Part shown: positions 6,064 to 11,448 of the stretch, piece after piece
Layout: every line of letters starts with the position of its first letter
Position numbering within the stretch: the first letter of the stretch is position 1
DNA from: Promethearchaeota archaeon Loki_b31
GTDB taxonomy: Archaea > Asgardarchaeota > Lokiarchaeia > Sigyniarchaeales > SOKP01
Direction of reading: 5' to 3'
Length of the DNA: 64,000 nt
NCBI GenBank assembly: GCA_005222975.1
Contig: NJBI01000007.1
Span: 1-64,000 of the forward strand
The notes under the pieces: generated by a model
The model's database searches: none
What the model was told of the DNA's origin: nothing
The model's input: only the letters and a program-made list of their open reading frames with translations
Program-made: the position numbers and the translations under genes

Positions 6064-7050
6064 ATGACTAAGGAAAAAATAAAAATTTGTGTACTTGAGA
6101 AAAAACGAGGAAATTTTTCAATACAAGAGAAATTTGCTAAAAGCGAAAATATTATCGATACAACTAATCAAGAAGTAGAACATCATTTAAGTGCTTTAAA
6201 TGAAGCGGGTTATGATGTAAAAATATTAAAATGGAATGACAATATAATTTCTGATTTAAAAAGTCTTGACATTGATATCGTATTTAATGTATCCAGCATT
6301 GTTGAAACAGCTATTTTAGAAGAATTAGAGATACCTTATGTAGGGTCTGATATTTTTGGATGCGTTATAGCAACCGATAAGGTTCTTACTAAAGATTTGT
6401 GGCTTAAAAAAGGATTACCAACATCACCTTATATTTTAGCAAGATCAAAAGAGGATTGTGAAATTTTTAAGAAAAACAAGCGTTTTGATTATCCTTTATT
6501 TATAAAACCCTCTCAAGGGAGAGGAAGTTCTGGAATCGACGAATCCTCACTTATCTGTTCATATAACGAATTAATTAAAGGAGTTGAAAAAAGATTAAAC
6601 ACAATAAATCAACCTGTTCTTATTGAAAAATTTTTAAAAGGTAGGGAAATAACATGTGGAATTATTGGTAATGGAAATCAGATTAAAGCCTTACCTTTAT
6701 TAGAAATAATACACAAGGAAAAGGAAAAATTCTTGACATTTAATAAAAAAGAGTTAGATGACGATAAATTCCAATGCCCTGCAAAATTAACTCCGAAACA
6801 GTCTAAAGAATTACAGAAATTAGCTATTTCAGCATTTCAAGCGATAAATCTTAGAGATTATGGTCGTGTAGACATGATCTTATCAGAAGAAGGTCCTTTT
6901 TTATTAGAAATAAATTGTTTTGCAGGATTAATGTGTACACCAAAAGATAAACCTCATAGTTACATGGGCTTTATGGCAATTGCAGAAAACAAAAAAAGTA
7001 GTGAATTCTTAGATGAAATTATAAAAGAAGCATTAAAAAGAATTGGATAA
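6064..7050 (+). CDS. ATP-grasp ligase, D-Ala-D-Ala ligase-like (non-canonical)
   Basis: IPYVGS..DK, PLFIKP..GSSG, EKFLKGREITCG, YGRVDM, LEIN motifs; lacks the canonical Ddl LHG..GEDG motif. Confidence 0.8.
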   Translation: MTKEKIKICVLEKKRGNFSIQEKFAKSENIIDTTNQEVEHHLSALNEAGYDVKILKWNDNIISDLKSLDIDIVFNVSSIVETAILEELEIPYVGSDIFGCVIATDKVLTKDLWLKKGLPTSPYILARSKEDCEIFKKNKRFDYPLFIKPSQGRGSSGIDESSLICSYNELIKGVEKRLNTINQPVLIEKFLKGREITCGIIGNGNQIKALPLLEIIHKEKEKFLTFNKKELDDDKFQCPAKLTPKQSKELQKLAISAFQAINLRDYGRVDMILSEEGPFLLEINCFAGLMCTPKDKPHSYMGFMAIAENKKSSEFLDEIIKEALKRIG

Positions 7051-7092
7051 CTTTCGTTCAAACTAAAAACAAATTGTATTATGTGAATTAAA

Positions 7093-8581: not shown

Positions 8582-10345
8582 TTGTTAAGGGTGATTAAGT
8601 CAATGAAGATGAATAACATTTATTTAGAGAGAAAAATAAATAAAAGAATTTTAACTGCATGTATAGGACAATGCGTTCATGTAGCTGGTACATATAATTT
8701 CATTCAAATTTCAAAACAGTTAGGTTATAATAATCTATTTTTAGGACCTGCTACCCCTATTTCAATTGTTATCGATCAAATTAAAAAGTATGACCCTAAC
8801 ATTGTAGGGCTAAGTTATCGTTTAACGGCAGACACTGTTAGACCTTTACTAAATGAATTTTTCAAAAATTTTATAAGATTAGAGAATAAACCAAAAAAAT
8901 TATTTTTTGCTGGAACACCTGAAGTAGTTGAGATTGCAAGAAAATATGAAGGGTTCGATGAATTTTTTGTTGGAGGGGAATCAAAATTTGAATTAATTTC
9001 TATCTTGAGAAATGAGAAAGTAAAATCAGAAAGTAAAACAGAAATCCCTATGGACATTATTTCTCGAATACGATGGAAGAAACCTTATCCTGTAATTAGA
9101 GCGCACTTTGGATTACTTAATTTCAATGAGACAATAGAAGGAATAAAAGAAATTGCTAAAGCTAAAGTCTTAGATGTTATTTCAATTGCGCCCGATCAAA
9201 ATACGCAAGAAAATTATTTCCACCCTGAAAATCAAGATAAAGAATTATCTGGAGCGGGCGGGGTTCCTTTGCGCACTCAGCAAGATTTCGAGAAGCTCCA
9301 TCAAGCAAGATTAACCGGAAACTATCCGATGTTAAGGATATATGCTGGAACACGCGATTTCATTAAATTAGGAAAATTGTATCGAGATACAATTCAAAAT
9401 GCTTGGGCGGCAATTCCTATTTTTTGGTTTAATCAAATGGATAGTAGGGGGCCTTTAACTTTAAAAGATTCGATTAAACAACATCTAAACGCAATAAAGT
9501 GGCACGGAAAGCACAATATTCCCGTTGAAATAAACGATCCACATCATTGGAGCCTTCGAGATTCTCCTGATGCTATAGCTGTTGCTGATATGTATTTATG
9601 TGGAATTATAGCCAAAAAATTAGGCGTCAAAAATTTTATAGCACAGTATATGTTTAATACACCTCCATCAAGTTCACTTGATATGGACTTAGCAAAAATT
9701 CTCGCTAAAGATGAGTTACTTCAAACGCTAGCCAATGAGAACTTTACGATAATTAAGCAAGTTCGGACGGGAATAGCAAGTTTCCCATTAGATTTGGATA
9801 AAGCAAAAGGACAGCTTGCTATTGCGACATTTGTTCAATTAGCTATTAGACCAGACATTGTTCATGTAGTTAGTTCTTCTGAAGCTAGTCATGCAGCTCG
9901 TCCAGAAAACATAATAGAAAGTTGTAAAATAGTGGATCAAGTTATAGATAAAATTTATTCCAGTAAAATTAACATTATAGATAAAAAAATTGAGGAAAGG
10001 AAAGAAGAATTAATAAGACAAGCCAAATGGATAGTTAATTTAATACCTCATTTAACAAAAAATGAAGATGAAACGAAAAGTCCATATACCAATTATGAAG
10101 TATTAAGTCGACTCGTAGAATATGGTATATTTGATGCCCCACATTTAAAAAACAATAAATTTGCGTTGGGTAAAATTAAAACCAAAGTAATTAACGGTGC
10201 TTGTTATTCGTGGAATGAATCTCAGCAAAAAATTTACGATGAAATTGAAAGAATAAAAGACATTATTTTTAATAGCCCATTTAAAAATTTTTCAGATTCA
10301 TTACAACAAAAAGAAAAATCCATCACAAAGGTGATGGATGAATGA
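8582..10345 (+). CDS. Cobalamin-binding domain protein with C-terminal mutase-like (probable TIM-barrel) domain
   Basis: N-terminal B12-binding Rossmann domain with CVHVAG (variant of DxHxxG) and VGLSY; large C-terminal catalytic-type domain. The true start may be a later ATG. Confidence 0.75.
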   Translation: MLRVIKSMKMNNIYLERKINKRILTACIGQCVHVAGTYNFIQISKQLGYNNLFLGPATPISIVIDQIKKYDPNIVGLSYRLTADTVRPLLNEFFKNFIRLENKPKKLFFAGTPEVVEIARKYEGFDEFFVGGESKFELISILRNEKVKSESKTEIPMDIISRIRWKKPYPVIRAHFGLLNFNETIEGIKEIAKAKVLDVISIAPDQNTQENYFHPENQDKELSGAGGVPLRTQQDFEKLHQARLTGNYPMLRIYAGTRDFIKLGKLYRDTIQNAWAAIPIFWFNQMDSRGPLTLKDSIKQHLNAIKWHGKHNIPVEINDPHHWSLRDSPDAIAVADMYLCGIIAKKLGVKNFIAQYMFNTPPSSSLDMDLAKILAKDELLQTLANENFTIIKQVRTGIASFPLDLDKAKGQLAIATFVQLAIRPDIVHVVSSSEASHAARPENIIESCKIVDQVIDKIYSSKINIIDKKIEERKEELIRQAKWIVNLIPHLTKNEDETKSPYTNYEVLSRLVEYGIFDAPHLKNNKFALGKIKTKVINGACYSWNESQQKIYDEIERIKDIIFNSPFKNFSDSLQQKEKSITKVMDE

Positions 10346-11448
10346 GATTCTGCGTTATTGGAGCAGGAAACGGTGGCCGAGCGTTTGCGGCATATTTATC
10401 GTCAAAAGGATATCCTGTAAATCTATATAATCGCTCATATACCAGAATTTATGACATCAAAAAGAAAGGAGGAATAAAAGCAAAAGGGAAGTTAAAAGGC
10501 TTTTTCCCAATTGATCTGATTACACAAAATCTAAATTTGGCAGTTAAGGATGTAGATATTATTTTAATAGTAACTCCTGCTTCAGCACATATAAGTATTG
10601 CAAAAAACATTGCACATCTTTTAACAAACGATCAGATAATATTGTTGAATCCAGGTAGAACTTTTGGAGCTGTAGAGTTTAGAAGTATAATAGAAAAGGA
10701 AAGGGGGAATCTCCCTGTTTTTATTGCTGAAACCCAAACATTACTTTTTACATCAAGACAATTGAAAAAAAATGAGGTTCAAATTCTTACAATTAAGGAT
10801 TCTGTTGATTTTTCGGCTTTTCCAGAGAAGCATACGTTTTTCATTAGTGATACATTGAGAGATGTTTTTCCCCAAATGAATCCTAGTGATAATTATCTGC
10901 AAGTTACATTAAATAATATGGGGATGTTATTGCATCCAACTCTCTCATTATTGAATGCGAGTGCTATGGATTATGGAAGAAAGTTCAATTTTTATGCACA
11001 AGGGGCATCTATACATACTTGTGAAATTCTTGAGACTCTTCAAATGGAATTCAGAAAGATTTTTGAAAAGTTAAATTTAAAACAAATAAATTTTTGTGAA
11101 TGGGTGGAGAAATCTTATGGATTTAAAGCAAACAGTATCTATAAAGCTATTCAAAAAATAGAAGCATATAAAAATATTGTTGCTCCAAAAGAATTAATAA
11201 CTAGATATTTCACTGAAGATGTTCCAACTGGACTTGTACCTATGGCGTCATTAGGAGAATTCTTAGAAATTTCTACACCTATAATTGATTCAATCATAAA
11301 TTTATCTTCGATTTTATGTGGAACTGATTTTAAAAAAGAGGGAAGAAACATTATGAACTTAAAATTGGCTAACTATATAACAAAACAAATGAAAGGAGAA
11401 GATTTGTTTGGAATAAAAAAAAGTTCAGAAGCACAAATCAGTACTTAA
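10342..11448 (+). CDS. NAD(P)-dependent opine (octopine/nopaline) dehydrogenase family protein
   Basis: GAGNGG Rossmann motif, PGRTFGA, NMGMLLHP (catalytic His), RYFTEDVPTGLVP (catalytic Asp); 4-nt overlap with the upstream gene. Confidence 0.88.
   Translation: MRFCVIGAGNGGRAFAAYLSSKGYPVNLYNRSYTRIYDIKKKGGIKAKGKLKGFFPIDLITQNLNLAVKDVDIILIVTPASAHISIAKNIAHLLTNDQIILLNPGRTFGAVEFRSIIEKERGNLPVFIAETQTLLFTSRQLKKNEVQILTIKDSVDFSAFPEKHTFFISDTLRDVFPQMNPSDNYLQVTLNNMGMLLHPTLSLLNASAMDYGRKFNFYAQGASIHTCEILETLQMEFRKIFEKLNLKQINFCEWVEKSYGFKANSIYKAIQKIEAYKNIVAPKELITRYFTEDVPTGLVPMASLGEFLEISTPIIDSIINLSSILCGTDFKKEGRNIMNLKLANYITKQMKGEDLFGIKKSSEAQIST

Follow-up and report, generated by a model that had tools for sequence, protein, structure and literature searches.

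A cobalamin enzyme and opine dehydrogenase core with an optional ligase and racemase module in a Loki archaeon: a candidate two-tier biosynthetic pathway

Four genes and their layout

We analysed a cassette of four genes on contig NJBI01000007.1 (assembly GCA_005222975.1) of Promethearchaeota archaeon Loki_b31, a member of the Promethearchaeia (Loki) with a 92%-complete genome, whose class was also named by the homologues found; the window is the whole stretch analysed, positions 1 to 64,000 of this contig. The cassette combines a B12 enzyme and an opine dehydrogenase, which we call the core, with an ATP-grasp ligase and a racemase. Because the four genes recur in distant microbes and were exchanged recently as one block, they probably belong to a real pathway leading to one small amino-acid-derived product. 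Each of them is single-copy in the genome, and they lie as follows:

6064-7050, plus strand: Ddl-fold ATP-grasp ligase gene, open reading frame (ORF) of 328 amino acids (aa)
7093-8178, plus strand: ornithine-racemase-type gene, ORF of 361 aa
8179-8602, no strand: AT-rich spacer between both gene pairs, probable second promoter region, with GGTGA at 8590-8594
8582/8603-10345, plus strand: B12 enzyme gene, ORF of 587/580 aa
10342-11448, plus strand: opine dehydrogenase gene, ORF of 368 aa

A first-pass annotation, made from the letters of this DNA, had described four co-oriented genes opposite in strand to a surrounding dehydratase locus, the last two translationally coupled and a gap of about 400 bp following the racemase gene. 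This layout was borne out: the genes are real and intact plus-strand ORFs, the interval 6064-11448 is flanked by minus-strand HGD-D dehydratase genes (4278-5588 and 11522-14911), and the stop of the B12 gene overlaps the start of the dehydrogenase gene by 4 nucleotides (nt; 10342-10345). For the B12 gene, ATG 8603 is the most likely start, since GGTGA lies 8 nt upstream and the homologues have about 580 aa, so that the gap measures 424 bp (403 bp if the TTG start is taken). The names given by the same annotation, namely a non-canonical Ddl-like ligase, an Orr-like pyridoxal phosphate (PLP) racemase, a B12-binding mutase-like protein and an opine dehydrogenase, also stand on the evidence given below, which includes the structure model of the barrel that it had proposed as a check. 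The spacer is retained at 84-89% identity within the clade and matched no Rfam family up to an E of 1; a sigma-70 promoter scan, whose model does not cover archaea, gave fewer matches than shuffled sequence. A plasmid search found no match to the cassette.

The B12 enzyme

The protein encoded at 8603-10345 matches PF06368 MutE (E 1.9e-7) and, weakly, PF02310; its family numbers at least 6,227 sequence clusters. Residues H26, G29, S71 and G104 of its B12 domain are conserved, H26 being the cobalt histidine of a CxHxxG motif; this form of the motif is found in the clade of the cassette copy, and the wider family keeps DxHxxG in 17 of 40 members. The best folds for its structure model (predicted local distance difference test, pLDDT, 81.6) were 1cb7_B and 6h9e_B (E 1.8e-15), and the VIA comparison with 1cb7_B gave Z 31.6 and a root-mean-square deviation of 3.0 over 374 aligned residues. 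The ranking placed glutamate mutase E first, then aminomutases (Z 26.6-29.9) and CoA mutases. Alignment by hhalign with four GlmE homologues (probability 96.9, E 1.7e-10) brings E427, conserved in 38 of 40, to the position of GlmE E330, a Glu that is invariant in the four homologues and binds ribose (PMC3958899). GlmE R149 and E171 map to Y247 and A270, less surely, the profile template being small and divergent. The substrate arginines of the GlmE PRAG and DSYTR/DxYTR motifs, which we take to be R66 and R100, have their positions occupied by H168 and Q202, and the score against TIGR01503 was 21.5 bits, under the cut-off of 390.1. The barrel conserves residues of its own, mostly on strands or the loops after them: R166, R245, R282, R319, R388, D280, E309, D323 and H421. 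Together these features describe, at the level of sequence and model, a single-chain GlmS-GlmE-like adenosylcobalamin (AdoCbl) enzyme with a Rossmann domain and a TIM barrel whose substrate pocket has been rebuilt. With its five conserved barrel arginines, the protein may be an AdoCbl mutase for a polyanionic substrate other than free glutamate.

Two other readings of this protein were considered. The database name 'methionine synthase' would make it a methylcobalamin methyltransferase, in line with the best matches of its N-terminal domain, which are corrinoid proteins of methyltransferases, and with the CxHxxG of its clade. We give this reading hardly any credit: the barrel fits AdoCbl mutases over MetH (E 1.8e-15 versus 4.8e-5), E427 and the DxHxxG of the wider family point the other way, and GlmL/MutL is fused to the B12 enzyme in three clusters of relatives (P0265, P0267 and P0270). 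The second is a Stickland-type ornithine/lysine aminomutase, dependent on B12 and PLP and supplied with D-ornithine by the racemase, an analogy that the first-pass annotation had drawn and that the Orr type of the racemase and the aminomutase barrels among the next-best folds would favour. The PLP lysine should presumably lie 11 residues past the cobalt histidine; no lysine is conserved there, position 37 being Ala in 44 of 46 sequences and position 38 variable. For comparison, the B12/PLP aminomutases have theirs at Lys629 and Lys144 (PMC3958899). The domain order is also unlike that of OraE, the core usually comes without a racemase and the best fold is glutamate mutase, so that the analogy lapses and the aminomutase reading is extremely improbable.

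Profile searches of the 92%-complete genome gave neither a GlmL/MutL partner nor PF09043 (OraE/KamD), for which control genomes gave no match either; a CobA/BtuR adenosyltransferase and two methylmalonyl-CoA mutase family genes are encoded. A complex prediction for the B12 enzyme with the dehydrogenase scored 0.00 and was counted neither for nor against. As side observations, the relative P0251 joins a B12 enzyme to a weak peptidase M15-like tail, and Chloroflexota hold GlmE homologues with GlmS and GlmL (L235-L237, L239) whose motifs are unlike those of the clostridial enzyme; an enolase-superfamily gene adjoins two of these homologues.

The opine dehydrogenase and the core pair

The dehydrogenase matches PF02317 (E 7.9e-38; 130 bits versus a cut-off of 30) and aligns full-length with the Arthrobacter opine dehydrogenase (ArODH) 1BG6 (E 4.4e-78). 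Rossmann and PF02317 domains are both present and the His/Asp dyad is kept (H198 invariant, D293 in at least 90%). Among 21 dehydrogenases that partner the B12 enzyme, N30, R31, R106, G194 and H198 are invariant, R106 and G194 being ArODH 111 and 198. Mutagenesis demonstrated that Arg111/Gly198 switches specificity to acidic amino acids; metagenomic opine dehydrogenases (mODHs) with this pair favour pyruvate, NADPH and either L-Asp or L-Glu, and opine dehydrogenases are L-specific (PMC10787698). We read the protein, from its residues, as an opine dehydrogenase with an acidic-amino-acid, NADPH-type signature.

Its gene adjoins that of the B12 enzyme in 76 of 80 loci, the remaining four stopping at contig edges, and in all 20 Chloroflexota loci. 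The B12 enzyme is present in 53/121 Promethearchaeia genomes and the dehydrogenase in 53/121, nearly always adjacent and in both orders. The core pair with its Ddl neighbourhood was already predicted in 2009: in the passages on this family, Zhang, Rodionov, Gelfand and Gladyshev proposed from 11 bacteria, without a mechanism, a B12-dependent family with an N-terminal B12-binding domain, always beside a PF02317 dehydrogenase and, in several organisms, near D-Ala:D-Ala ligase and asparagine synthase genes (PMC2667541). Our literature search found no assay or later characterisation of the pair after that prediction, and for the four-enzyme combination the same article was the sole match.

The ligase and the racemase

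The ligase matches PF07478, the Ddl C-terminal domain (E 3.7e-30), and stays under all Ddl cut-offs, with 150.7 bits against the NCBIfam Ddl model (cut-off 243) and 51.8 bits against the archaeal pseudomurein model (cut-off 500). Its structure model (pLDDT 88.9) matches DdlB in Foldseek with a template-modelling (TM) score of 0.78, and Atlas and Foldseek structure searches returned Ddl-like proteins alone. The ATP-grasp fold and catalytic core of D-Ala-D-Ala ligase are present, with K106, K148, E188, E195, R268, D270, E282 and N284 invariant. In place of the first-D-Ala-binding GGxSxE, HGxxGEDG and omega-loop Tyr stand KKRGNF, FNVSS and FNKKE: the site for the amine of the first D-alanine is lost and basic residues are gained, K13-K14-R15 in the N-terminal KKRGNF motif and R153 being conserved. 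Members of this subfamily share 53-75% identity and occur in bacteria and archaea. These characters indicate a carboxylate-amine ligase of Ddl-type ATP-grasp fold in a distinct subfamily, not a D-Ala-D-Ala ligase. Compared with five relatives, its gene has 2-6 synonymous but 4-8 non-synonymous codon changes, a pattern that points to a sweep of very recent date or to selection that was relaxed or positive.

The racemase matches PF01168 and the Orr model NF040742, the latter with 362.7 bits, below the cut-off of 480 (relatives reach 400 and 416). Its residues K34, R129, N158, C161, R217 and Y342, invariant in 16 homologues, match the six named active-site residues of Salmonella OrnR (K36, R129, N161, C164, R220 and Y349; PMC13397332), the Lys/Cys acid-base pair included. 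We assign it to the ornithine-racemase (Lys/Cys) type among fold-III PLP racemases, with ornithine as the likely substrate. A second group of Orr-type racemases (49-58% identity; L040-L049, other Loki genera) lies away from ligase and core and adjoins a protein without family assignment and EamA transporters. In 15 ligase loci an HDAC-family amidohydrolase gene is found near the racemase gene, usually directly 3' of it (e.g., L204:3009-4043); this enzyme could hydrolyse an amide product.

Linkage of ligase and racemase to the core

Besides the core loci described above, linkage was studied in 80 metagenome loci centred on the ligase. In this ligase set the racemase gene directly follows in 60 of the 71 loci with room for it; 23 of the 80 contain the B12 enzyme or the dehydrogenase (8 of the 17 with long flanks) and 11 contain all four genes. 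A single-copy gene would fall within 10 kb by chance in <1% of cases, by a rough estimate, and the recurrence of the cassette in distant loci takes its clustering beyond chance. Gene orders vary (dehydrogenase-B12-ligase-racemase, B12-dehydrogenase-second ligase-ligase-racemase and divergent forms), they come from two B12 subclades only about 30% alike, and the core-linked loci are scattered over the ligase tree, a quick version with long outgroups used only to show the spread of linkage across branches. Seen from the B12 side, ligase and racemase accompany the core only in a clade of at least 92% identity, and in two other Loki loci the ligase stands 3-5 kb from the core without a racemase. 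Other amide-forming enzymes adjoin the core elsewhere: a glutathione-synthetase-like ATP-grasp domain fused to the B12 enzyme between dehydrogenase and C26 amidotransferase (P0243), a different Ddl-like ligase with a C26 enzyme, a second Ddl type, and AsnB-type enzymes in nine loci.

The cassette is a universal core of B12 enzyme and dehydrogenase with an optional ligase and racemase module, not a fixed four-gene unit. The first-pass annotation had made its case depend on the two gene pairs co-occurring elsewhere, which they do; its linkage of all four genes as neighbours holds in the recurrent loci and gives way to this modular arrangement for the ligase and racemase. Two candidate explanations were dropped. 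The idea of two unrelated modules that are neighbours within a single clade was overturned by the ligase-centred searches, and a trio of GCS2 ligase, gamma-glutamylcyclotransferase and class I glutamine amidotransferase (GATase), which adjoins the dehydrogenase in other Loki genomes, failed as a substitute module as many of its 35 genomes have no B12 enzyme. This trio is seen 3' of hgdA (L062:13417-16021, L077:13217-13579), GCS2 itself occurring in 35/121 genomes of the class. In genome G108, a ligase-racemase-DUF5698 group ends contig C33 and a B12 gene lies about 1 kb from the end of C83 (L222, L223); the two contigs may be joined.

Transfer and assembly of the block

Compared with the related loci L053 and L093, DNA identity is 87-99% over about 6020-11450 and 71-82% just outside, and identity at fourfold sites is 80-100% in the four genes versus 38-49%, close to saturation, in the amylase, hgd and activator genes on either side. 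High identity inside and low identity on the flanks indicate that the four genes moved recently between species as one block, without the dehydratase. Features on the left side of the block are:

5730-5759, no strand: direct repeat, left copy, with its partner at about 8177-8207, bracketing ligase and racemase (87% over 31 nt, E 4e-6, or 88% over 26 nt)
6021-6049 and about 8222-8250, no strand: second direct repeat pair (83% over 29 nt)
5751-5882, minus strand: decayed copy of dehydratase gene 11522-12877, 3' end only (74% over 99 nt to 11522-11620, E 2e-10)

The locus L054 has a longer hgdA remnant (115 aa). The decayed hgdA end is a scar left by rearrangement where the block begins on its left side, and repeats and scar record its assembly. 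Farther along the window, the first of the VIT1-like genes at 14981-16622 has 75-86% fourfold-site identity with L053, L055 and L093 between saturated neighbours, and is possibly a second exchanged island; positions 17480-23587 encode two proteins, one acidic, 1361 aa long and nuclease-like at its C-terminus, the other ATPase-like and 654 aa long.

Dehydratase flanks and regulatory neighbours

The cassette lies between hgd genes in 20 Promethearchaeia loci, and no hgd gene was found near it in the Chloroflexota, Heimdall or ligase-subfamily loci examined. The first-pass annotation had offered as one option a catabolic route that feeds 2-oxo or 2-hydroxy acids to the flanking dehydratase. In such a route the dehydrogenase would break down opines taken from the environment, and the acids released would go to the 2-hydroxyacyl-CoA dehydratase. 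Opine dehydrogenases are reversible, and HDAC-family amidohydrolases (15 loci) or C26 enzymes (3 loci) nearby could act in degradation. This route is very improbable nonetheless: the hgd genes are confined to the Promethearchaeia loci and stay outside the transferred block, and ATP-consuming ligases and the NADPH-type signature favour synthesis. A link of cassette and dehydratase was abandoned as local synteny. The two flanking HGD-D subunits (4278-5588 and 11522-12877) are paralogues about 55% identical, the left one shorter at its annotated start.

In the locus L104 a cyclic di-AMP (c-di-AMP) riboswitch (RF00379) lies directly 5' of the B12 gene, PII-type homologues of c-di-AMP receptors occur in six loci, and Usp, CBS, anion-transporter and Trk genes recur as neighbours. 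These neighbours favour an osmotic or potassium role for the product. Opines chelate metals, and the main alternative role, with the same chemistry, would be a secreted metal chelator comparable to staphylopine or to staphyloferrin A, with a D-amino acid acylated by a polycarboxylate. An OrnR-type racemase takes part in making staphyloferrin A (PMC13397332), two ligases flank racemase or core at L163, L174, L177, L183, L189 and L221, and MFS, EamA and DUF5698 membrane genes are occasional neighbours. We hold the chelator to be a poor prospect in view of the regulatory neighbours named above, and because no CntL-like enzyme, IucA/IucC synthetase or ABC metal importer was found in the cassette or its annotated recurrent neighbours, a genome-wide search not having been made.

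A proposed pathway in two tiers

The best explanation, which we favour by a modest degree, is one biosynthetic pathway in two tiers. In the first, the dehydrogenase would use NADPH to condense pyruvate with either L-aspartate or L-glutamate, as its specificity signature implies, and so form a tricarboxylic opine. The B12 enzyme would rearrange the carbon skeleton of this opine, or of a close precursor, by AdoCbl radical chemistry like that of glutamate mutase, both its substrate and the order of the two steps being predictions. In the second, the racemase would supply a D-amino acid, for which D-ornithine is the likeliest candidate; the ligase would activate one opine carboxylate with ATP and form an amide with this amino acid. 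The first tier is the universal core; the second is optional, and other lineages would place other amide-forming enzymes beside the core. The product would probably be a small solute that carries charge and serves to balance osmotic pressure or potassium, the weakest step of the proposal. Polyanionic substrates are favoured by the basic, remodelled ligase pocket together with the conserved barrel arginines. Since opine dehydrogenases are L-specific, the ligase is a likelier recipient of the racemase product than the dehydrogenase, unlike in the staphylopine synthesis to which the first-pass annotation had pointed; the biosynthetic option of that annotation is supported by the ATP-consuming ligases, the NADPH-type signature and the co-occurrence of the pairs.

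Of 400 Asgard genomes, 22 have the ligase, and in these and G019 the B12 enzyme is present in all 23; this co-occurrence amounts to about seven lineages on a high background (53/121 and 21/31 genomes, 44-68%) and is supportive, not decisive. Several observations weigh against the proposal. The core occurs in 20/251 Chloroflexota, none of which has this ligase, and only about 10/53 core-bearing genomes of the host class have it. Ligase and racemase often stand without the core, within the sequence covered, as at L133, L144, L162, L189, L213 and L226, and L132 and L135 carry the ligase without a racemase. In G082 (L045, G082:C132) a 91% identical racemase adjoins hgdA and no B12 or dehydrogenase gene was found, either through core loss or through separate transfer of the pair. 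The 424-bp gap and the repeats suggest separate units. The riboswitch was found in 1 of 58 loci scanned and not in window positions 4000-13000, and diadenylate cyclase (PF02457) was not found in the 92%-complete host genome. Finally, all substrates assigned here are predictions.

Part of this would suit two chemically separate modules in a mobile stress island, the core making one compound and the other pair an unrelated D-amino-acid amide or dipeptide: each pair is found without the other nearby, the repeats bracket ligase and racemase alone, and the between-species DNA identity of the ligase (98-99%) versus that of the core (88-96%) allows two transfer steps. We consider separate modules unlikely, because no Asgard genome was found with ligase and without core, tight co-oriented operons recur in different orders and in two B12 subclades, and one relative has a B12 enzyme that carries a fused ATP-grasp domain.

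Within the two-tier pathway, that the four enzymes share one route seems fairly likely, the order of chemistry is tentative, and D-ornithine amide as the specific product is doubtful. In a bolder version, about as speculative as the order of steps, the B12 protein would be a new class of AdoCbl mutase that needs neither CoA nor PLP to rearrange its substrate, an opine and thereby an N-alkylated amino acid. This enzyme would stand at the centre of a widespread pathway, and the pathway would yield a compatible solute not described before, which in the present form bears a D-amino acid cap and is now spreading between Asgard species. To our knowledge only about a dozen classes of AdoCbl enzymes are known, and this one, if real, would add a mutase acting on an opine, from a family of more than 6,000 clusters for which no assay was found. 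The four-gene form offers a complete set of enzymes, in which substrates are predicted for three of the four steps, and a possible role of D-amino acids in archaea unrelated to the cell wall. It is also a clear example of metabolic genes exchanged recently between Asgard archaea.

Comparison with known systems

The cassette dehydrogenase shares fold, dyad and Arg111/Gly198 pair with 1BG6 and the mODHs; the mODHs were assayed without genomic context, and the function of the cassette protein is predicted from its sequence. The ligase has the fold of DdlB, its ATP, Mg and oxyanion residues and its omega-loop lysine, and differs in the basic residues at the first-substrate amine site, in an identity of about 24-26% and in its archaeal host. 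The racemase shares the dyad and all named site residues of OrnR/Orr (Salmonella STM2358, C. sticklandii); it differs by falling below the NF040742 cut-off, by having no aminomutase or decarboxylase operon and by its pairing with an ATP-grasp ligase.

Staphyloferrin A (SfaBCD) and staphylopine (CntKLM) synthesis resemble the cassette in logic only: in the first a D-amino acid supplied by a racemase is joined to a polycarboxylate, and in the second an opine dehydrogenase acts in a small-molecule pathway. The cassette differs in having no IucA/IucC synthetase, nicotianamine-synthase-like enzyme or DapF-fold racemase, and we know of no use of B12 in either synthesis. The family of Zhang and collaborators corresponds in layout to the core, with its B12 domain, PF02317 neighbour and Ddl- and AsnB-type genes nearby. 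The core described here is archaeal, from a family of more than 6,000 clusters. The passages of 2009 on that family contain neither the racemase nor the specific ligase subfamily, and nothing on the fold of glutamate mutase, on fusions or on block transfer.

The closest relative of the B12 enzyme by fold is the glutamate mutase GlmS/GlmE-GlmL of Clostridium cochlearium (1CB7, 6H9E). Both have the B12 Rossmann domain and the same barrel with the equivalent of E330 kept, the cassette enzyme has no CoA or PLP signature, and GlmL fusions occur among its relatives. It differs from glutamate mutase as a single chain with 16-18% identity and CxHxxG, with H168 and Q202 for the motif arginines, with new conserved arginines, and with a gene tied to that of an opine dehydrogenase.

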